From: an uncultured virus (IMG/VR IMGVR_UViG_3300025168_000060)
Lineage: Duplodnaviria; Heunggongvirae; Uroviricota; Caudoviricetes
IMG/VR virus record: IMGVR_UViG_3300025168_000060
Direction: 5' to 3' (one strand)
DNA: 64,000 bases
Shown piece after piece: positions 3,239-63,430 of the stretch (its first letter is position 1; each line of letters begins with the position of its first letter). The translations under genes were made by a program, and so were the position numbers. The notes beneath the pieces are model-generated. The model was given only the letters and a program-made list of their open reading frames with translations, was not told the DNA's origin and did not search any database.

Positions 3239-4108
3239 ATGTTATTAAGAACGATAGCATTAACGGTGGCGATACTGTGTATGTTTACATATGCAAATGC
3301 AGTAGAAATAAAACCGTACGGTGCTTTTAACTATAAATGGTCACATGATGAAAATTCAAGTGGCGTTGCATACGACAAATTAGAGAACAATGGCTCAAAC
3401 ATTGGTATTGATATTTCAGAACCAAGTTTAGAAGGTTCAACAATTGGTGCAGTTGCAAAGCTACAAGTTGGAATAGATGTTGATGATTCCGGTAGTGATA
3501 CTTTTGATTCACAGCTTGCTTACGTAGGCATAGTGAATAACGGTATAACATTATCTGTTGGTCGTCAATCACACCCATTCACAGACAACATTGGTGGTAA
3601 ATCATCTTCGTTTAATGTGTATGGTGGCGGTTCTGATTTTAATTATGCAAGCCGCTCATCAAACTCAATTGCCTTATCTAGTGATATGCTAGATGTTATG
3701 GCAGTGATAGATGGTTCATCTGGACAAGATGGCATTGATGAGTACGAAGTTACTTTATCTCATACAGTAATGGGTACAGATGTATCTATTGGTTACGCTG
3801 ATGATGTTGCAAACGATATCTCTTATTGGGGTGCCGGTGCAAGTACAAGTGTAGGTGATATTTCCATTGGTTCTTCATATACAGTATATGACGCTGCTAC
3901 AGACAAAGTAGGCATGGAAGCAACGATTGGTTGGAAAGCAATCACCGTTGGTTACGGAGATAAAGAAGGAACTGGTACATACATGACATACGGTCTAAGT
4001 CACAATATGACAGATAGTCTAACCGTCTATGCAGAAATGCAACAAGATGATTTAGATACTGGTGCTGACTTACAACACTATAGTGTAGGTACTAAGTTTA
4101 CATTTTAA
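3239..4108 (+). CDS. Gram-negative porin (outer-membrane beta-barrel)
   Basis: Sec signal ending ANA; N-terminal PYG; NNGSNIGI, LAYVGI, LSVGRQ; alternating beta-strand pattern; C-terminal YSVGTKFTF (BAM signal); AAGGA RBS. Confidence 0.85.
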   Translation: MLLRTIALTVAILCMFTYANAVEIKPYGAFNYKWSHDENSSGVAYDKLENNGSNIGIDISEPSLEGSTIGAVAKLQVGIDVDDSGSDTFDSQLAYVGIVNNGITLSVGRQSHPFTDNIGGKSSSFNVYGGGSDFNYASRSSNSIALSSDMLDVMAVIDGSSGQDGIDEYEVTLSHTVMGTDVSIGYADDVANDISYWGAGASTSVGDISIGSSYTVYDAATDKVGMEATIGWKAITVGYGDKEGTGTYMTYGLSHNMTDSLTVYAEMQQDDLDTGADLQHYSVGTKFTF

Positions 4109-49890: not shown

Positions 49891-50955
49891 ATGTTTAAAA
49901 AACTGACTTCATTCCTGATTGTAGTATCAGGCATGATTTTATTATCTACAACTACACAAGCAAAAGACCCTAAAATTGGTTTCATCTACATTGGTCCTCC
50001 AGGCGACCACGGCTGGACTTATATGCACGACCAAGGTAGACAAGACATTGAAATTGAATTAGGTTTTGAAACCACATACATTGAAAACGTACCAGAAAAC
50101 GCTGATGCTACTAGAGCAATACAAAAATTAGCAGCTTCTGGACACGATTTAATCTTTACAACATCTTTCAATTACATGGATCAAACTTTAGAAGTGGCAG
50201 AACAATACCCAGATATAAAGTTTGAACATGCAACTGGTTACAAAAGACTAGACAATGTTTCAACATATTCATCAAGGTTCTATGAAGGTAGAACTATTAG
50301 TGGACATATTGCCGCTAAAGAAAGTAAGACAGGCATTATAGGTTATATTGCCAGTTTTCCAATACCTGAAGTTGTAAGAGGTATTAACGCTTTCATGTTG
50401 GCTGCACAAAAGGTAAATCCAGATATTCAAATTAAGATTATATGGGCATACACTTGGTACGACCCGGCAAAAGAGGGTGATAGTGCAAAAACTTTAATCA
50501 ATCAAGGTGCAGATATTATAGTACAACATACTGATACATATGCACCATGTAGAGTGGCACAGGAGATGGGTGTGAAAGCATTTGGTCAAGCAAGTGACCA
50601 ATATAAGTTTTGTCCAGAGGCACATCTAACCGCAATCATTGATGAGTGGGGACCCTACTATGTTGCAAGAGCGAAAGCATTAGCAGATGGTACATGGGAA
50701 TCTACTGATACATGGAAAGGTTTAGATAGTGGCATGGTACAAATGGCAAAATACACCAATATGCATCCAAATACAAAGTATGAGGCGATTGCCATAGAGA
50801 ATGCTTTGAGTGAAGGTAAAATGCATTCCTTTGAAGGACCTATTTACAATCAGGCAGGCGAACTAATGGTACCAGAAGGTGAAGTTGCACCTGACGGTAT
50901 GTTACTAGGCATGAACTGGTACGTAAAAGGTATAGACGGACAACTACCACAATAA
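49891..50955 (+). CDS. BMP/PnrA-family ABC transporter periplasmic binding protein (purine/nucleoside-binding type)
   Basis: Signal peptide; IGFIYIGPPGDHGWTYMHDQGR, DLIFTTSFNYM, FEHATGYK, FPIPEVVRGINAF, WYDPAKE, GADII.QHTD. Confidence 0.9.
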   Translation: MFKKLTSFLIVVSGMILLSTTTQAKDPKIGFIYIGPPGDHGWTYMHDQGRQDIEIELGFETTYIENVPENADATRAIQKLAASGHDLIFTTSFNYMDQTLEVAEQYPDIKFEHATGYKRLDNVSTYSSRFYEGRTISGHIAAKESKTGIIGYIASFPIPEVVRGINAFMLAAQKVNPDIQIKIIWAYTWYDPAKEGDSAKTLINQGADIIVQHTDTYAPCRVAQEMGVKAFGQASDQYKFCPEAHLTAIIDEWGPYYVARAKALADGTWESTDTWKGLDSGMVQMAKYTNMHPNTKYEAIAIENALSEGKMHSFEGPIYNQAGELMVPEGEVAPDGMLLGMNWYVKGIDGQLPQ

Positions 50956-54894: not shown

Positions 54895-55452
54895 ATGACT
54901 GAAACAGTAAAACTAAAAACACCTAAGAAAAAGGAACATTATGTTTCCAATAAGGAGTTTTTAGTTGCAATGAAAGAATTTAAAAAGAAGTGTTTAGCTG
55001 CAGAGAAAAGAGGAAGAAGGCAACCACCTATAAGTGATTACATAGGTGAATGTTTTTTAAAGATTGCCAATCATCTATCTTACAGACCAAACTTCATTAA
55101 CTACACATACAAAGAAGATATGATATCTGATGGTATAGAGAATTGCCTACAGTATGTATCAAACTTTGATCCAGAAAAAAGTAACAATCCTTTTGCTTAC
55201 TTTACACAAATTATATACTACGCTTTTATTCGTAGAATACAAAAAGAAAAGAAACAAACAACAATCAAACAGAAACTTATTCTTAAATCAGGACTAGATG
55301 AATTAGTTTTACAGGCCGGTGATGATGGTGATTATCAAAATCAATATGCGGACTTTCTAAAGAAGAACATGATTGAGACAGAACCAGAGAAACCAAAAGA
55401 GAAAAAGGTAAGAAAGAAAGAACCTAAGAAATTAGAATACTTTATGCAATGA
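54895..55452 (+). CDS. gp55: Late-transcription sigma factor gp55
   Basis: HYVSNKEFL, YIGECFLKIA..LS..PNF.NY, DMISDGIENCLQY, NPFAYFTQI. Confidence 0.96.
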   Translation: MTETVKLKTPKKKEHYVSNKEFLVAMKEFKKKCLAAEKRGRRQPPISDYIGECFLKIANHLSYRPNFINYTYKEDMISDGIENCLQYVSNFDPEKSNNPFAYFTQIIYYAFIRRIQKEKKQTTIKQKLILKSGLDELVLQAGDDGDYQNQYADFLKKNMIETEPEKPKEKKVRKKEPKKLEYFMQ

Positions 55453-56930
55453 CAGAAAAGATTATAATTGTAGGAGGTGGTAGTGCAGGCTGGATGTCAG
55501 CGGCAACACTTATCAAAGCCTTTCCTCACAAAGACATCACCGTAATAGAAAGTCCTAATACACCCACCGTAGGTGTAGGTGAAAGTACCATTGGTAGTAT
55601 TAATGATTGGTTATCTTTCTTAGAACTAGAAGATAAGGACTGGATGCCTCATGTAGGTGCTTCCTATAAATTAAGTATTAAGTTTACAGACTTTTATAAA
55701 AAAGGTGAAGAATTTCATTACCCATTTGGTTTACCTTATGAACCTTATATTTCTAATGATACACGAAACAAATGGTATTTAAAGAAACATTTACAGAATT
55801 GTAAAACATCTGACTATGCTGAATGTATGGCACCACAAATTGCCTTAGCGAATACAAACAAAATGGCAAAATCTTTTGATGGTTTTGATTATCACAAAGA
55901 CGCTGCTTATCATTTTGACGCTTTACTCTTTGCAAAATATCTAAAAGAGAATTATTGTTTACCAAGAGGTGTAAAACATATAAAAGAACATATAAACACC
56001 GTAGAAACAAATGAACATGGTATTATATCATTGAACGATAAACATACTGCCGACCTATACTTAGATTGCACAGGCTTTAAATCTTTGTTAATGAAAGAAG
56101 TAAATAGTAAGTTTATTCACATGAACCATATTTTACCAAATGATAGTGCATGGTCAACAAAATTAGAATATACAGATAAAGAAAAACAATTAGAACCATA
56201 TACAAATTGTACCGCTATAGAAAACGGTTGGGTATGGAATATACCTCAATGGCAAAAGATTGGTACTGGTTATGTTTATTCAAGTAAGTATATTGATGAT
56301 GACCAAGCGTTAGAAGACTTTCATAACTATTTGGGAAAACCAAAGAATGTAAATTATAAAAAAACAGGTATGAGAGTAGGTAGACATAAACATATGTGGA
56401 AAAAGAATGTATGCTCTATAGGACTGGCTGCAGGTTTTATTGAACCTTTAGAAAGTACAGGTCTCCTTCAAACACATGTATTTTTATTAAAACTTGTAAA
56501 GAATTTAGAACGAGGCAAAGTATCACAGTTTGATAAAGATACACACAATTTAGAATGTAATGATATATTTGATAACTTTGTTGCCTTTGTGGCGATGCAT
56601 TATTCTTTATCACATAGAGACGATACACAATATTGGCGTGATGTAAGAGAAAGAAGTATTGCGGAGTTAGAACTAGTGCAAAAAGTAATGAAAGTAAAAC
56701 ACATTGACCATTATTTTACAATAGATGGTGGTATGCATTATATTGCCACAGGTATGAATTATGATCCTATCTCTATGACAGATATATTAACAAAACAATA
56801 TGAACTAGACACAGATATAATAGATGAAAAATATGTGGCAACATTTGATACAAATAAGAATAGATGGAAAAATAATGCCAAAAAAGAACTTACATTATAT
56901 AAATTTTTAAAGGAGAATATACATGGGTAA
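55449..56930 (+). CDS. Flavin-dependent halogenase (tryptophan halogenase/PrnA family)
   Basis: VGGGSAGW, VGVGEST, ASYKLSIKF (catalytic Lys), AYHFDA, DCTGF, GWVWNIP (WxWxIP), FIEPLESTG. Confidence 0.92.
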   Translation: MTEKIIIVGGGSAGWMSAATLIKAFPHKDITVIESPNTPTVGVGESTIGSINDWLSFLELEDKDWMPHVGASYKLSIKFTDFYKKGEEFHYPFGLPYEPYISNDTRNKWYLKKHLQNCKTSDYAECMAPQIALANTNKMAKSFDGFDYHKDAAYHFDALLFAKYLKENYCLPRGVKHIKEHINTVETNEHGIISLNDKHTADLYLDCTGFKSLLMKEVNSKFIHMNHILPNDSAWSTKLEYTDKEKQLEPYTNCTAIENGWVWNIPQWQKIGTGYVYSSKYIDDDQALEDFHNYLGKPKNVNYKKTGMRVGRHKHMWKKNVCSIGLAAGFIEPLESTGLLQTHVFLLKLVKNLERGKVSQFDKDTHNLECNDIFDNFVAFVAMHYSLSHRDDTQYWRDVRERSIAELELVQKVMKVKHIDHYFTIDGGMHYIATGMNYDPISMTDILTKQYELDTDIIDEKYVATFDTNKNRWKNNAKKELTLYKFLKENIHG

Positions 56931-57969: not shown

Positions 57970-58651
57970 TGATTACCCAGACCACTTGTATTATAACAAT
58001 ACATACTTTTTTGGTCCTTATTTACATCATGGTAGAGTTGACCCTAAATTTATTAAAGACTTATTAGCCATAGGTGAGAAATCACAGGATATGGTTGATA
58101 TGAAAAAGAACTTAGCAGGTGATTTAAAAGGTGAGTGGAAGTTTAGTGAAGAAGACCAAAGATGGTTTTGTAAACACATGAGATTAAACTTTGAACATTA
58201 TGTGAAACAACGTGCCAGTTGGCATGCTGATTCAGAATTAGAAAAAAGAGGATATATTATAGATAACGTATGGATTAATTATCAACATCCAGGTGATTAT
58301 CAACCAGAGCATATACATGCAGGTGATTTTAGTTGGGTTATTTATTTACAGAATCCACCAGGACTAGAAGAAGAAAGAGATAACCACGATACACGAGGTC
58401 CTGCACCAGGTACAATTACCTTCTCTTATGGTGAGGGTGTTGGTATGTCAATTGAAAACTATGCTGTCATCAATCAAAACTTTGCCAATAAAGTAGGTGA
58501 CTTCTTTATATTTCCGGCACAATTAAGGCATTCTGTACCACAATTTAAGAGTGAGGGTGTGAGAATATCTATAAGTGGGAATGGTAGTTTCCAAGAAAAA
58601 CATAGTCCATATAATGATTACTTTTATGGAGAACAAAGAATAAACAATTAA
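57962..58651 (+). CDS. 2OG-Fe(II) oxygenase between gp47 and gp46
   Basis: VWINYQ..GDYQPEHIHAGDFSWVIYL, FIFPAQLRHSV, RISISGN. Confidence 0.85.
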   Translation: MSNDYPDHLYYNNTYFFGPYLHHGRVDPKFIKDLLAIGEKSQDMVDMKKNLAGDLKGEWKFSEEDQRWFCKHMRLNFEHYVKQRASWHADSELEKRGYIIDNVWINYQHPGDYQPEHIHAGDFSWVIYLQNPPGLEEERDNHDTRGPAPGTITFSYGEGVGMSIENYAVINQNFANKVGDFFIFPAQLRHSVPQFKSEGVRISISGNGSFQEKHSPYNDYFYGEQRINN

Positions 58652-60363
58652 TGATAATATTTGAAACGATAAGGTGGAAGAACTTTCTTTCCACTGGCAA
58701 TACCGGTATAGAAGTAAAACTAAACGAACACCAAGATACACTTATTGTAGGTCACAATGGTGCAGGTAAATCAACAATACTTGACGCCTTGTGTTTTGGT
58801 CTTTTTAATAAACCTTTTAGAGATATTAAGAAAGAACAAATGGTCAATAGTGTTAATCTAGGTGGCACAGAAATAGAAATAGAGTTTAGTATCTCTAATA
58901 ATAAGTACAGAATTAAACGTGGCATTAAACCTAATGTGTTTGAAATACACCTGAATGGTGAACTTGTCAATCAGGATGCCTCTATTGCTGACCAACAAAA
59001 ATACTTAGAACAACAAATATTGAAATTTAATTACCGTAGTTTTACACAGGTTGTTATACTAGGCAGTAGTGCATTTGTACCTTTTATGGAATTAAAATCA
59101 CCACATAGACGAGAAGTTGTGGAAGATATACTTGATATAAAGATATTTTCTGTAATGAATATGTTAGTAAAGATACAAATAAAAGAAATACAAGACCAGT
59201 TACGAGATATTGATAGAGAGATTGATATTACCAAAAACAAAGTAGAGACACAGGAAAGATATATTGAACAAACAGGTAAGCAAACACAATCTACAATAGA
59301 TGATTACAATAAGAAGATACAAGAAAACAAAGACGCATTAAACAAATACAATGACCATAAAGCAGAGTTAGAAAAAGTATTAAACAAAGAAAAAGAAAAG
59401 ATACTAGATGAGAATAAGGTACGAGAACAAGTAAAGAGATTAAATGCCTTTGAAACACAGTTTGAAACAAAAGTCAATGAGTGTACTAAACATAAAAAGT
59501 TTTATGAAGCACATGATAATTGTCCTACATGTCAACAGACTATAGACCCACAGTTTAAATCAGAAAAGATATCTAAAGAAAACAACCAGATGTTAAAGTT
59601 TAATCAGGCATTAGAAGATGTTGCCAAAGAAATATCTAGTAAACAACGAAGACTACAAGCCATTGCAAGTGTCTATGAGAATATGAAAGTAACAGAAATA
59701 GATATTGCGAAGTTTGAACAATCTAGTAACGAACTACAAAACATTAATCGTAAATTAGAAAGTCAAGTAAATACTCTTATGCAACAAAGTGAAGAAACAG
59801 GTAATGCAAAAGGTAAACTAGAGTCCTTACAAGAAATGATGGCACACCACGAGAGTGAACAGTTACGAAAAAAAGAAGAACTAGATTATCTACAGGCTGC
59901 CAGAGTAATGTTGGCAGATACAGGTATCAAAACAAAAGTTATCAAACAATATCTGCCTATAATGAACCAGTTGATAAACAAATATTTGGCGTCTATGGAC
60001 TTCTTTGTTAATTTTAAATTAGATGATGAGTTTAGAGAGATTATAAGAAGTAGATTCCGTGATGACTTTAGTTATAGTAGTTTTAGTGAAGGTGAAAAGA
60101 TGAGAATAAATCTGGCACTATTGTTTACATGGCGTGCCATTGCTAAGATGAAGAACAGTATATCTACCAATCTATTAATGTTAGATGAAATATTTGACAG
60201 TAGTTTAGATGGTCAAGGTACAGATGACTTTCTAAAGATACTGAATACACTAGAAGGTGAGAATGTGTTTATCATATCACATAAGACAGACCTGATGGCA
60301 GATAAGTTTAAAAACATAATGAGGTTTGAGAAGTACAAAAACTTTACAAGGATTGTTGAGTGA
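58651..60363 (+). CDS. gp46: Recombination ATPase gp46 (Rad50/SbcC-like)
   Basis: WKNFLSTGN, GHNGAGKST, CPTC hook, FSEGEK, LDEIFD. Confidence 0.96.
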   Translation: MIIFETIRWKNFLSTGNTGIEVKLNEHQDTLIVGHNGAGKSTILDALCFGLFNKPFRDIKKEQMVNSVNLGGTEIEIEFSISNNKYRIKRGIKPNVFEIHLNGELVNQDASIADQQKYLEQQILKFNYRSFTQVVILGSSAFVPFMELKSPHRREVVEDILDIKIFSVMNMLVKIQIKEIQDQLRDIDREIDITKNKVETQERYIEQTGKQTQSTIDDYNKKIQENKDALNKYNDHKAELEKVLNKEKEKILDENKVREQVKRLNAFETQFETKVNECTKHKKFYEAHDNCPTCQQTIDPQFKSEKISKENNQMLKFNQALEDVAKEISSKQRRLQAIASVYENMKVTEIDIAKFEQSSNELQNINRKLESQVNTLMQQSEETGNAKGKLESLQEMMAHHESEQLRKKEELDYLQAARVMLADTGIKTKVIKQYLPIMNQLINKYLASMDFFVNFKLDDEFREIIRSRFRDDFSYSSFSEGEKMRINLALLFTWRAIAKMKNSISTNLLMLDEIFDSSLDGQGTDDFLKILNTLEGENVFIISHKTDLMADKFKNIMRFEKYKNFTRIVE

Positions 60364-61064
60364 AATATTTTCCAGTAGTTGTAGATAATTTCTTCCGTAA
60401 TCCAGATTTGATAAGAAAACTGGCATTGAGTTTAAACTATACACCTGATGATAAAGGTAGATGGCCTGGTCAGCGAAGCGAACAGTTACATACAATAGAC
60501 TATGAATTGTTTATGAGTATTATGTTAAAGATTATGTCTATCTATACAGACTTTGCTTATTCAAACGTTACATGGGAAAATGCTAGTCTTTACTTTCACA
60601 AAATAAAAGATACAGGTGATAAAGAACTGAATAAAGGTTGGATTCATATTGACCAAGACTTTGAATTAGCAGGACTATGTTATTTGAATCCTGGTGTAAA
60701 TGATATAAACACAGGCACCTCACTTCACTCAATAGAAGACCACCACAAGTACGAAAGACATTATTATAAACATTTGTATTATCGAGGCGACAATGTGGAT
60801 ATAAATGATTATAAGAAAGAACTGAAAGAACACAATGACAAATATACAGAAACAATGAGAATATCTAACGTGTATAATAGAATGATTACCTATGATACAA
60901 AAGAACATCATTGTTTAAATGGCATATCAGAGAATGAAGAAAGATTAACTATGTTATTGTTTATGAGTGATATATCACCAGAAGGTAAGTTTCCTGTTTC
61001 CAGAATACAAGATGACAAACAGTATGATAACTTTATTGAAGAAAGGATAAATTTTTTATTATGA
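60360..61064 (+). CDS. 2OG-Fe(II) oxygenase-like (DUF6445-type), paralogue of 1078..1770
   Basis: YFPVVVDNFFRNPD, GRWPGQRS, GWIHID, SNVYNR, HHC, ERLT. Confidence 0.8.
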   Translation: MKYFPVVVDNFFRNPDLIRKLALSLNYTPDDKGRWPGQRSEQLHTIDYELFMSIMLKIMSIYTDFAYSNVTWENASLYFHKIKDTGDKELNKGWIHIDQDFELAGLCYLNPGVNDINTGTSLHSIEDHHKYERHYYKHLYYRGDNVDINDYKKELKEHNDKYTETMRISNVYNRMITYDTKEHHCLNGISENEERLTMLLFMSDISPEGKFPVSRIQDDKQYDNFIEERINFLL

Positions 61065-62071
61065 AGATAACAATTGCCAGATTACGAAGTGGTACAAATT
61101 ATAAAGAACCACTACACGATATTATGGATAGTTTCTATGACCTATACAGACGATACATGGAAGAAAATACACAACACACTTATGGTGTTTATAACTTTGG
61201 ATGGGGTCATGCAAACAGAAAAAAGTTAGATGATATACCAGATAGTGACGTTATTATTATACCAAGTGAGAATGAATTTACACAACACATTAAAAACTTT
61301 GTTGACCCAAGGCACAAAGCAAGAAGTGATGAAATGGTCAAACAAATAGGTGAACACCTATCAAATAAACATGTAATGATATGGCGTAGTGATAGAGCAG
61401 ATAATGAAGAACTGTATCGTAACAAAACATTTAAAGACCAACCCATTGGCAAGTTTAGTACATTAGACGAAATGGATATACCTGGTGGACTACATGGCAT
61501 GAAGTATCATTTTATTACAGAAAACTATCCGGCAAAACTAGATGAAACACGAGACATAGATTTTGTCTATTGGGGTACAGATAAACGTAAGACAACAGAA
61601 AATGTTGATAGTGGTGATCCTAGGCACAAAGTATTTAAACAGATATACAAAGAAAAGAAGTTGTCCTCATACTGGATTGGTAAATTTAGTAATATAGAAA
61701 GAAATATGAAGATAAACCGTATGGTGCATATATTACCATATCTAACAAGTGGTAAAGGTACATTGTGTTTTAACTGGATGAGTGAGACAGCCACAACAAG
61801 TAGATACCATGAGGCATTGGCCTGTGGGTTGATACCATTTGTATGGCATAACTATGATGTAAACAATACAATAGTCGCTGACCCATGGCAGAGAGTATCA
61901 AGTGTAGAAGAACTCTATGAAAAGTATGAAGAATTAAATGGAGCCAAAGGTGATTTATGGGGTCAAAAACTGATGGACATAGAAGAAGAATATAAAAAGA
62001 ATGTCCTGAAATCAAAAGATGAGTATTATCAACTATTTAAGACAAGGCTTGACAAATTGTTAGAATTATGA
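61061..62071 (+). CDS. GT-B glycosyltransferase resembling T4 DNA beta-glucosyltransferase
   Basis: N-terminal MKITI; DFVYWG..KR; TSRYHEALACGLIPFVWHNYDVNNTIVADPWQRVSSVEELYEKYEEL parallels the T4 BGT C-terminal region as recalled; similar length. Confidence 0.65.
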   Translation: MKITIARLRSGTNYKEPLHDIMDSFYDLYRRYMEENTQHTYGVYNFGWGHANRKKLDDIPDSDVIIIPSENEFTQHIKNFVDPRHKARSDEMVKQIGEHLSNKHVMIWRSDRADNEELYRNKTFKDQPIGKFSTLDEMDIPGGLHGMKYHFITENYPAKLDETRDIDFVYWGTDKRKTTENVDSGDPRHKVFKQIYKEKKLSSYWIGKFSNIERNMKINRMVHILPYLTSGKGTLCFNWMSETATTSRYHEALACGLIPFVWHNYDVNNTIVADPWQRVSSVEELYEKYEELNGAKGDLWGQKLMDIEEEYKKNVLKSKDEYYQLFKTRLDKLLEL

Positions 62072-62077
62072 TAGGAT
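62049..62077 (+). promoter_or_regulatory. Sigma70 promoter for the DUF4338-like gene
   Basis: TTGACA-N17-TAGGAT with extended -10 TG. Confidence 0.75.
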
Positions 62078-62090
62078 ATAGAATTATATT

Positions 62091-63347
62091 ATGGAAAAGA
62101 AAATAGATCCGCTACTAGAAGAGCAATGGGAGGTTTTTCAAAAAGAAAACCCAAGTGCGACATATCGTCACGTTGATGAGAATGAACTGGTAGATAGACT
62201 AACAAAAGAATTAACTTATGCTTCTAATATGTCAGTAGAAGAATACACACTATATCAAAAATGGTGTGAAGTAAAAAACAAATATCCTGCACAAAAAGTA
62301 AATACTTTATTTGGTGAAGAAAGTCAATTAGTTGACCAGTCAAAAGATAAGTTATTAGTACATGTGAAAAACAATATATGGTCACCTAAAGACCCTATGG
62401 ACTTTGAAAAGTTAGAACCAGAGTTAATCTATACAAAAGACATACCCAATGGGTCACAATTGTGGAATGCAATTCGTACATTTGCTTCTACAATGAAAAA
62501 CAATAACAACATAGGTCGTAACCTTAACTTTATTGTAAGAGATAAACCAACAAAGAAATACTTAGGTGTTATTTGTATCTCATCAGACTTTTTAGATTTA
62601 ACACCAAGAGACAATTACATAGGTTGGGATAGAGAACGTAAAACGAAGAAGATGATTAATCATACGGCAATAGGTAGTACGATTGTGCCACTACAACCAC
62701 TAGGGTTTAATTATACAGGTGGTAAGTTATTGGCGTTATTATGTTTATCTGATAAAGTACAAGAAATATGGAAAAGAGAATATGGTGACACGATGGTAGG
62801 TGTAACAACAACAAGTCTATATGGTAGTTTTAGTCAGTATCAAAATCTTAAATACTGGAAGAAAAGAGGTCATAGTTCAGGTAGTGTATCTTATGAAGCA
62901 ACAAAACCTACAATTTCTATGATACGAGATTGGTTAAAAGAAAATCATACAAGAAAATACTTTGAATGGTATGGTGCAACAAAACCTACAGGCCAGCCTT
63001 ATAAGAGAGACCACAGAAATAGGTCACATACATTTGCCTACAGTAAGTTAGGCATACCAAGAGAGATTACAAAGTCTGCTCATAGTCGTGGTATCTATTT
63101 TAGTACACTATATGATAACACTTGCGAATTTTTAAAAGAAGAAATAACGGAAGATAAGTTAAAAAAATCATTTGATAGTAGTATTGAAGGACTTGTAAAT
63201 GTATGGAAAAACAAGTATGCTAGTAAGCGTATTAAATCATTGATTAACCAGTCTAGGACGAACATGGAGACACTTTATTATGATGACTTGATACATCTAA
63301 CTTGGGAAGAAACAAAGAATAAGTATCTAAAACAGGTAGGAAGATGA
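62091..63347 (+). CDS. DUF4338/DruA-like protein
   Basis: GRNLNFIVRD....YLGVI, RDNYIGWD, IVPLQPLGFNYTGGKLLALL, GVTTTSLYG..SQY. Confidence 0.75.
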   Translation: MEKKIDPLLEEQWEVFQKENPSATYRHVDENELVDRLTKELTYASNMSVEEYTLYQKWCEVKNKYPAQKVNTLFGEESQLVDQSKDKLLVHVKNNIWSPKDPMDFEKLEPELIYTKDIPNGSQLWNAIRTFASTMKNNNNIGRNLNFIVRDKPTKKYLGVICISSDFLDLTPRDNYIGWDRERKTKKMINHTAIGSTIVPLQPLGFNYTGGKLLALLCLSDKVQEIWKREYGDTMVGVTTTSLYGSFSQYQNLKYWKKRGHSSGSVSYEATKPTISMIRDWLKENHTRKYFEWYGATKPTGQPYKRDHRNRSHTFAYSKLGIPREITKSAHSRGIYFSTLYDNTCEFLKEEITEDKLKKSFDSSIEGLVNVWKNKYASKRIKSLINQSRTNMETLYYDDLIHLTWEETKNKYLKQVGR

Positions 63348-63430
63348 GAACATTTAGCGAACACCACATCTGTTGCAAAAATACAACAGTACAAAAATGA
63401 TAAGTCATTGAAAAACAACGATTTTAATTT
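63348..63430 (+). promoter_or_regulatory. Upstream regulatory cassette, copy 2 (LexA-type box, 18-bp palindrome, IHF-like site)
   Basis: GAAC-N7-GAAC at 63348-63362; TGTTGCAAAAATACAACA at 63371-63388; TAAGTCATTGAAA at 63401-63413. Confidence 0.75.

Follow-up and report, generated by a model that had tools for sequence, protein, structure and literature searches.

What do a glycosyltransferase and a DruA-like protein do side by side in the replication module of a T4-like phage? The question is raised by a 64,000-nucleotide stretch of DNA from an uncultured virus (IMG/VR IMGVR_UViG_3300025168_000060), here called the window, which makes up the opening 64 kb of a viral contig of 75,817 bases that is estimated to be 51% complete and has a T4-like gene order. 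Directly after gp46 lie three open reading frames (ORFs), for an oxygenase-like protein, a glycosyltransferase (GT) and a DruA-like protein, which a first-pass annotation had read as a trio for DNA hypermodification or counter-defence; their coordinates and + strand orientation are confirmed. Pelagibacter phage HTVC008M has counterparts of the DruA-like protein (79% identity) and of the GT (67%), and by these identities the source virus is an HTVC008M-like myovirus, whose kinship points to a SAR11-infecting kind. We report that the GT, DruA and an atypical tRNA-Gly move between phages as a cassette, and we tentatively propose, with a confidence just short of even, that the cassette places glycine and then a sugar on phage DNA.

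The first-pass annotation had likened the GT to T4 beta-glucosyltransferase (BGT), and BGT is indeed the best match in both structure searches and in a profile search. An AlphaFold2 (AF2) model of the GT with a predicted local distance difference test (pLDDT) score of 93.5 retrieves T4 BGT first in Foldseek (E 4.8e-8), and VIA-align places BGT (Z 19.4, root-mean-square deviation (rmsd) 3.6, 287 aligned) ahead of AGT (Z 15.7) and other GT-B enzymes (Z of 14.5 or less). A profile built from 39 diverse GT members had BGT as its sole match at E<0.001 among 177,635 PDB sequences (E 6e-4); single-sequence and narrow-profile PDB searches were empty for both the GT and DruA, and for the GT only the wider profile reached BGT. 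The C-terminal domains of the two enzymes align over 161 columns (E 2.7e-4), which sets GT residues G172, R188, R248 and E251 opposite BGT G189, R195, R269 and E272, residues of the nucleotide-sugar domain. An aspartate of the GT that follows strand E104-109, D111, is invariant in 55/55 rows and is a by-eye candidate for the counterpart of BGT D100. Searches for Pfam, PHROG or NCBIfam families gave none above cut-off for the GT. Judged from its predicted structure and its profile, the GT is a true homologue of T4 BGT, and it does not group with lipopolysaccharide (LPS) or glycan enzymes, the outcome by which this assignment was to be tested: it lies nearer BGT and AGT than any LPS enzyme.

If the enzyme is of the BGT type, does it act on 5-hydroxymethylcytosine (hmC)? 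A deoxynucleoside monophosphate hydroxymethylase gene, which the first-pass annotation had named as something to search for, was not recovered: the thymidylate synthase family PF00303 matched 0/5 records and 0/3 complete relatives (two of them GT-bearing), with 10/14 controls matched, and a T4 gp42 query, run without a positive control, matched 0/5 records. Because the complete relatives lack a thymidylate-synthase-family gene for hmC, the acceptor of the GT is probably not hmC.

Identity of the neighbouring protein as DUF4338/DruA-like is well founded, with a PF14236 score of 76 bits against a cut-off of 27 (E 3e-21), a match to PADLOC DruA1 (E 5e-20) and PF14236 matched by 51/51 aligned DruA-like members. 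Such membership would suit a phage DruA that blocks host Druantia, whether as a decoy or as an inhibitor, or one that defends phage against phage. However, the DruE-type MZB domain (PF09369) was found in 0/4 records, that of the 51%-complete source contig included, as against 8/14 controls, which agrees with the earlier remark that other Druantia genes are absent; DruE is the helicase with a DUF1998/MZB domain that forms part of Druantia type I. Two DruA paralogues are conserved in 3/3 complete relative genomes (in HTVC008M one follows gp46 and the other the DNA polymerase), the nearest atlas clusters of the DruA-like protein are 96-100% viral, and a decoy would have no need of the glycine tRNA described below. 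Nothing here supports counter-defence against Druantia, and we regard it as scarcely credible.

What activity might a DruA-family protein have instead? The AF2 model (pLDDT 89.7) matches GNATs, the class to which the accessible text of PMC10853773 assigns DUF4338, and DruA-like folds in Synechococcus phages receive a mention in the part of the Phold preprint that was consulted. In VIA the first match is phage Mu Mom (Z 10.7, rmsd 4.1, 170 aligned, model residues 103-351), followed by the next GNAT at Z 9.7, and helices 272-319 of the model lie between late strands in a position similar to that of Mom's helical insertion. As described in the accessible portion of PMC13219725, Mom moves glycine from Gly-tRNA-Gly to the N6 of DNA adenine and requires R111, S124, D149 and R151 together with the helical insertion. 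Among Mom's residues only Y159 seems, by eye, to be conserved, as Y250, and the Mom Pfam family has no match in the 51 DruA-like members. The suggestion of the first-pass annotation that DruA-like proteins are GNAT/Mom-like thus finds support in the predicted fold, in which Mu Mom is nearest by a small margin; the protein likely works like Mom.

An enzyme working in this way would draw on a glycine tRNA, and one is encoded 3.8 kb downstream in the source contig: a 74-nt tRNA-Gly(UCC) between a CobS-like gene and rpS21, where the HTVC008M lineage also carries its 74-nt form. It is the sole pattern match in the contig, against 0.06 expected per shuffle, and the cloverleaf is its minimum-free-energy fold; ARAGORN and Rfam (at gathering score) both miss it, and ARAGORN at relaxed scores returned mostly noise. 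All counts rest on a strict pattern; a looser one produced false matches inside gp45 of phages with the pyridoxal phosphate (PLP) enzyme and N6-methyltransferase (N6-MTase) described below, and folding ruled these out. A G+C-rich hairpin at about 67113-67150 of the contig stands just upstream of the tRNA-Gly and is retained with changes in locus L003.

The pattern imposes the acceptor end and U73-CCA, and leaves the anticodon, the anticodon stem and the T stem free. Among the matches listed, this free anticodon is NCC in 125/125 (TCC 85, ACC 27, GCC 13), and pairing in the anticodon and T stems reaches 98.7% across the 62 distinct sequences among them, as against 26-52% when slid; a 36-sequence subset (29 distinct) holds 136 both-side changes, compared with 34 in shuffles. 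The family has G1-C72/C2-G71/G3-C70, U73 and CCA at its acceptor end; G1-C72/C2-G71/G3-C70, U73 and the NCC anticodon are identity elements of tRNA-Gly. The D-loop reads AAAAGUA in 60/62 and the T-loop GGCAGUA in 59/62 of the distinct sequences among the matches listed, both loops being largely imposed by a pattern drawn from the source-contig and HTVC008M RNAs, and the canonical GG and UUCGA are lost. Loss of the D-loop GG and the T-loop UUC together with an ACC anticodon fits an RNA that is charged by glycyl-tRNA synthetase (GlyRS) and unused by the ribosome. Because the anticodon is always NCC, ACC included, and these loop motifs are gone, we infer that host GlyRS charges this tRNA and that the ribosome does not receive it for translation. 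Four RNA runs contained no more than scattered contigs of relatives, with the tRNA nearly uncovered, so that they carry no weight either way. The tRNA-Gly(ACC) of HTVC008M, at 91140-91213, appears to be unannotated, because Table 1 in the accessible text of PMC7029224 gives this phage 0 tRNAs.

Closer linkage is seen elsewhere, where a tRNA-Gly-like RNA lies 2-50 nt past the DruA stop in 29/131 loci of a redundant set, mostly as a 63-nt variant whose D-arm is a stub. At L060:8307-8369 and related loci (L016, L059-L090) such 63-nt RNAs, with the D-arm reduced to a 3-bp stub, directly follow DruA; they have a short CCC loop, and their T-loop is near-canonical. Loci L224, L247, L251, L255 and L291 carry two atypical tRNA-Gly (TCC and GCC) that flank gp45-gp44, a number equal to that of the DruA paralogues.

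Do these genes travel together? The full-length GTs recovered from IMG/VR (124, in 39 clusters at 95% identity) have DruA within two genes in 23 clusters, which bears out the linkage of GT and DruA that had been put forward as a check; a PLP enzyme occurs in 11 (10 with N6-MTase) and a C5-methyltransferase (C5-MTase) with CmoA in 1, so that a base-modifier gene of one of these kinds stands beside the GT in 35/39. Scanned from DruA, the GT is present beside only 7/25 DruA clusters, and several PLP/N6-MTase loci are likewise without it. Two gene sets alternate in the slot after gp46. One is GT and DruA; the other combines the GT with a PLP fold-II-like enzyme (phrog_7093) and an SPPY-motif amino-methyltransferase. 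This second cassette is seen, with the GT in some cases absent, at L205:4278-7312, L196, L207 and L467-L489 and is a candidate for a base-modification pathway of its own. At the DNA polymerase site the GT stands beside a short DruA or beside a C5-MTase and a CmoA-like gene; the latter arrangement (L117-L119, L123, L124 and L126) may, to judge by gene content, yield glycosylated carboxymethylcytosine.

The tRNA follows DruA in this exchange. When loci spanning gp46 or def to gp45 were counted and de-duplicated on gp45, the tRNA was present in 12/16 DruA slots and 0/7 PLP/N6-MTase slots (Fisher p 0.0013, with kin counted as independent). Starting from the tRNA, DruA was found in 15/75 long and 2/45 short loci and the GT in 2, most of these loci not extending as far as either of the DruA sites, and PLP, N6-MTase and CmoA genes were found in none of the 75 long and 45 short loci. 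A covariance model had 0 matches in 23 PLP/N6-MTase loci, a weak negative since two positives of 63 and 68 nt, L162 and L019, escaped it too, and five PLP/N6-MTase contigs, just 15-29% complete, gave no match to DruA. Moreover, the GT tree groups by partner gene and not by gp46 (for which a quick tree was used): L203 shares 65% identity with the window in gp46 and only 49% in the GT, and freshwater-type DruA phages share 42-46% in gp46 and 58-65% in the GT. On a single host, the cultured phage HTVC008M has GT, DruA and tRNA-Gly, and Mosig has DruA and tRNA-Gly without a GT match.

Is the oxygenase part of the cassette? The ORF is 2-oxoglutarate (2OG) oxygenase-like as first described, with a Pfam match to DUF6445 (E 2e-7) and an HxD motif at H96. 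The three-enzyme pathway that adjacency suggested would have DUF6445 hydroxylate a base, the GT glycosylate it and DruA acylate it; the reading frames are adjacent and overlapping in the source contig, and a BGT-type enzyme needs a hydroxyl for which no hmC synthase was found. However, only 2/39 GT clusters have DUF6445 at a distance of two genes or fewer from the GT, and in HTVC008M the GT directly follows gp46 and the DUF6445 gene is absent at that site. An oxygenase of any type is that close in 7/39 clusters, in 3 of which it is an unrelated oxygenase upstream of gp46. The Pfam search gave no Tet_JBP match for the ORF (PF12851 matched 0/5 records searched, and control genomes gave no match either), two further DUF6445-like genes occur elsewhere in the window, and at least 9 oxygenase-type genes are dispersed over it among the genes tested. 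The oxygenase is a passenger outside the cassette, and a pathway that depends on it is very unlikely. The order hydroxylate-glycosylate-acylate also lacks support, because DruA is frequently present where the GT is missing, while the GT nearly always has a base-modifier neighbour. Of the original hypermodification idea, DNA modification as the likeliest role and the pairing of GT with DruA stand; the oxygenase and the order of steps do not.

Features of the gp46 region and the downstream tRNA (window coordinates unless stated)
Feature	Coordinates	Strand	Remarks
gp46 gene	58651-60363	+	directly upstream of the three ORFs
DUF6445 2OG-Fe(II) oxygenase-like gene, 234 amino acids	60360-61064	+	Pfam match; lineage-specific insert, outside the cassette
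BGT-like GT-B glycosyltransferase (GT) gene, 336 amino acids	61061-62071	+	predicted structure, profile search; core of the cassette
DruA/DUF4338-family GNAT-fold protein gene, 418 amino acids	62091-63347	+	PF14236 match, predicted structure
Atypical tRNA-Gly(UCC), 74 nt	contig 67161-67234, beyond the window end	+	pattern search, cloverleaf fold, covariation
Sigma70-type promoter-like site before the DruA-like gene	62049-62077	+	candidate; inside the 3' end of the GT gene

We hypothesize that host GlyRS would charge the phage-encoded tRNA-Gly, that the DruA-family GNAT would transfer its glycine onto a base of replicating phage DNA, with adenine N6 as the default target by analogy with Mom, and that the BGT homologue would then add a sugar to the glycine adduct. 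DNA is the probable acceptor because of the Mom-like fold, the position in the replication module and the interchange with amino-methyltransferase and C5-MTase/CmoA cassettes. The GT would act second because DruA is often found without it and it is rarely found without a base-modifier gene, an asymmetry that points to a handle made by a first enzyme and to glycosylation as an optional second step.

Several observations weigh against this proposal. Mom exceeds ordinary GNATs by just 1 Z unit, ranks second in the Foldseek search with the DruA-like model (E 6e-3), shares no sequence or profile similarity with DruA (hhalign was empty), and has R111, S124, D149 and R151 without counterparts visible by eye. 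The catalytic D100 of BGT, in the acceptor domain, was aligned to the GT by neither MAFFT nor hhalign. No tRNA is near in 4/16 DruA slots, the GT+DruA locus L190 among them, and two PLP/N6-MTase phages carry a canonical tRNA-Gly elsewhere. CGCG and GATC are still strongly avoided, so that any protection by modification would be incomplete: observed over expected counts in the source contig are 2/71 for CGCG, 5/96 for CCGA/TCGG and 36/429 for GATC. This avoidance is independent of cassette type, CCGA being avoided mainly in the HTVC008M lineage and CGCG in nearly all cassette states.

Other contrary observations would fit two independent DNA marks, in which DruA leaves a glycine adduct, the GT acts on another modified or a canonical base, and the two genes owe their adjacency to the clustering of modification genes. 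A promoter-like site of its own precedes the DruA-like gene; locus L191 has the GT and tRNA without DruA; the GTs of L092 and L096 have no base-modifier partner and lie near RuvC-like and GT8-type genes; and the GT of L117, beside CmoA/C5-MTase, is near-identical to those beside the short DruA of L114 and L115, so that the GT may be indifferent to its partner. This explanation sits poorly with a GT tree that tracks the partner and not gp46, with a base-modifier neighbour in 35/39 clusters and with the empty PF00303 search for an hmC route in complete relatives. We consider it somewhat unlikely.

Could the glycine go to something other than DNA? Fem-type transferases acylate non-DNA targets, and the DruA-like GNAT might use tRNA-Gly on a sugar, an envelope polymer or a protein, for which the GT may build a sugar acceptor. 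The small structural margin and the missing Mom residues would allow this, and many LPS-type sugar genes are reported from these phages in the accessible text of PMC7029224, where pelagimyophage glycosyltransferases are held to alter the host O-chain, a view that also counts against our proposal, although its argument rests on GT8. However, the gene lies within the replication module by gp46 or the DNA polymerase, genes of DNA-methyltransferase type substitute in the same slot, and the GT is closer to BGT and AGT than to LPS enzymes. A target other than DNA is for these reasons unlikely.

The sigma70 promoter that the first-pass annotation gave to the DruA-like gene has a candidate in TTGACA-17-TAGGAT with TG, within the last codons of the GT gene. 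A consensus promoter scan alone performs at chance level (39 sites vs 30 +/- 6); the stricter TTGAC-N18-TAGGAT has four copies in the contig (62049, 63442, 65864 and 68935), all on the + strand and preceding genes, and the TTGAC hexamer recurs at the same place before the DruA-like gene in close relatives. A short inverted repeat, CTGTTG...CAACAG, lies at about 63366-63384 in the gap that separates the DruA stop from the promoter of the peptidase gene, with similar words in relatives. Elsewhere in the window are a carbamoyltransferase gene truncated by the contig start (3-896), a porin gene (3239-4108), a gene for a Bmp-family ABC substrate-binding protein after gp23 (49891-50955) and a tryptophan-halogenase-family gene between gp55 and gp47 (55449-56930).

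If the glycine-then-sugar proposal is correct, it would assign a biochemical reaction to the DruA/DUF4338 family, broaden tRNA-dependent DNA modification from Mu Mom to phages with a tRNA of their own, and place a DNA glycoside without a hydroxymethyl-pyrimidine in SAR11 viruses. A broader scheme is possible, with a likelihood well below even: hypermodification would be modular in abundant marine and freshwater T4-like phages, with one BGT-like family glycosylating varied handles, namely glycine delivered by DruA and a non-translational tRNA, the product of the amino-MTase and PLP enzyme, or carboxymethyl-C. The glycosylated base would in that case derive from neither hmC nor hydroxymethyluracil, and a tRNA, at its smallest the 63-nt stub-D-arm form, would be maintained for DNA chemistry. 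The pair HTVC008M and Mosig, with the GT present in one and unmatched in the other on the same host, offers a ready natural comparison. DruA-family genes joined with tRNA-Gly or with this GT were not found in the literature searched, which lay largely outside subscription journals and supplements; the network of Mom homologues in the supplements of PMC13219725 could include these proteins.

How does the cassette compare with known systems? Phage Mu Mom (PDB 8bv8; accessible text of PMC13219725) shares the GNAT fold, the late helical insertion and the link to a glycine tRNA; it differs in length (241 amino acids, against 418) and in having catalytic residues that are not evident in DruA and no sequence similarity to it, and it works with the tRNA-Gly isoacceptors of E. 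coli, whereas the phages considered here bring an atypical tRNA-Gly themselves and in many cases the GT too. Druantia type I DruA belongs to the same Pfam family, PF14236, which the phage protein matches above cut-off; the phage gene, in contrast, is stand-alone in a lytic phage, with two paralogues per complete genome and no DruE-type domain. T4 BGT (PDB 1c3j, 1qkj) has the same GT-B fold and is the best structural and profile match, with T4 AGT second, but structural identity is 14%, the BGT Pfam family is not matched and the acceptor domain is not alignable by sequence. The MT/5mYOX(TET)/GT clusters of bioRxiv 2023.12.21.572611 likewise use BGT-like GT-B enzymes, which put varied sugars onto modified bases; as the accessible text describes them, they depend on 5mYOX or ThyS, whereas DUF6445 has no TET match, and neither GNAT nor Pelagibacter is named in that text. 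Finally, the CmoA/CmoX/CmoY pathway, in the accessible main text of PMC12783734, from which the word "glycosyltransferase" is absent, provides a base handle for further hypermodification, with glycine; it differs in not being seen in the source contig, and resembles our system in that some phages carry a CmoA-like gene and a C5-MTase beside the same GT family.

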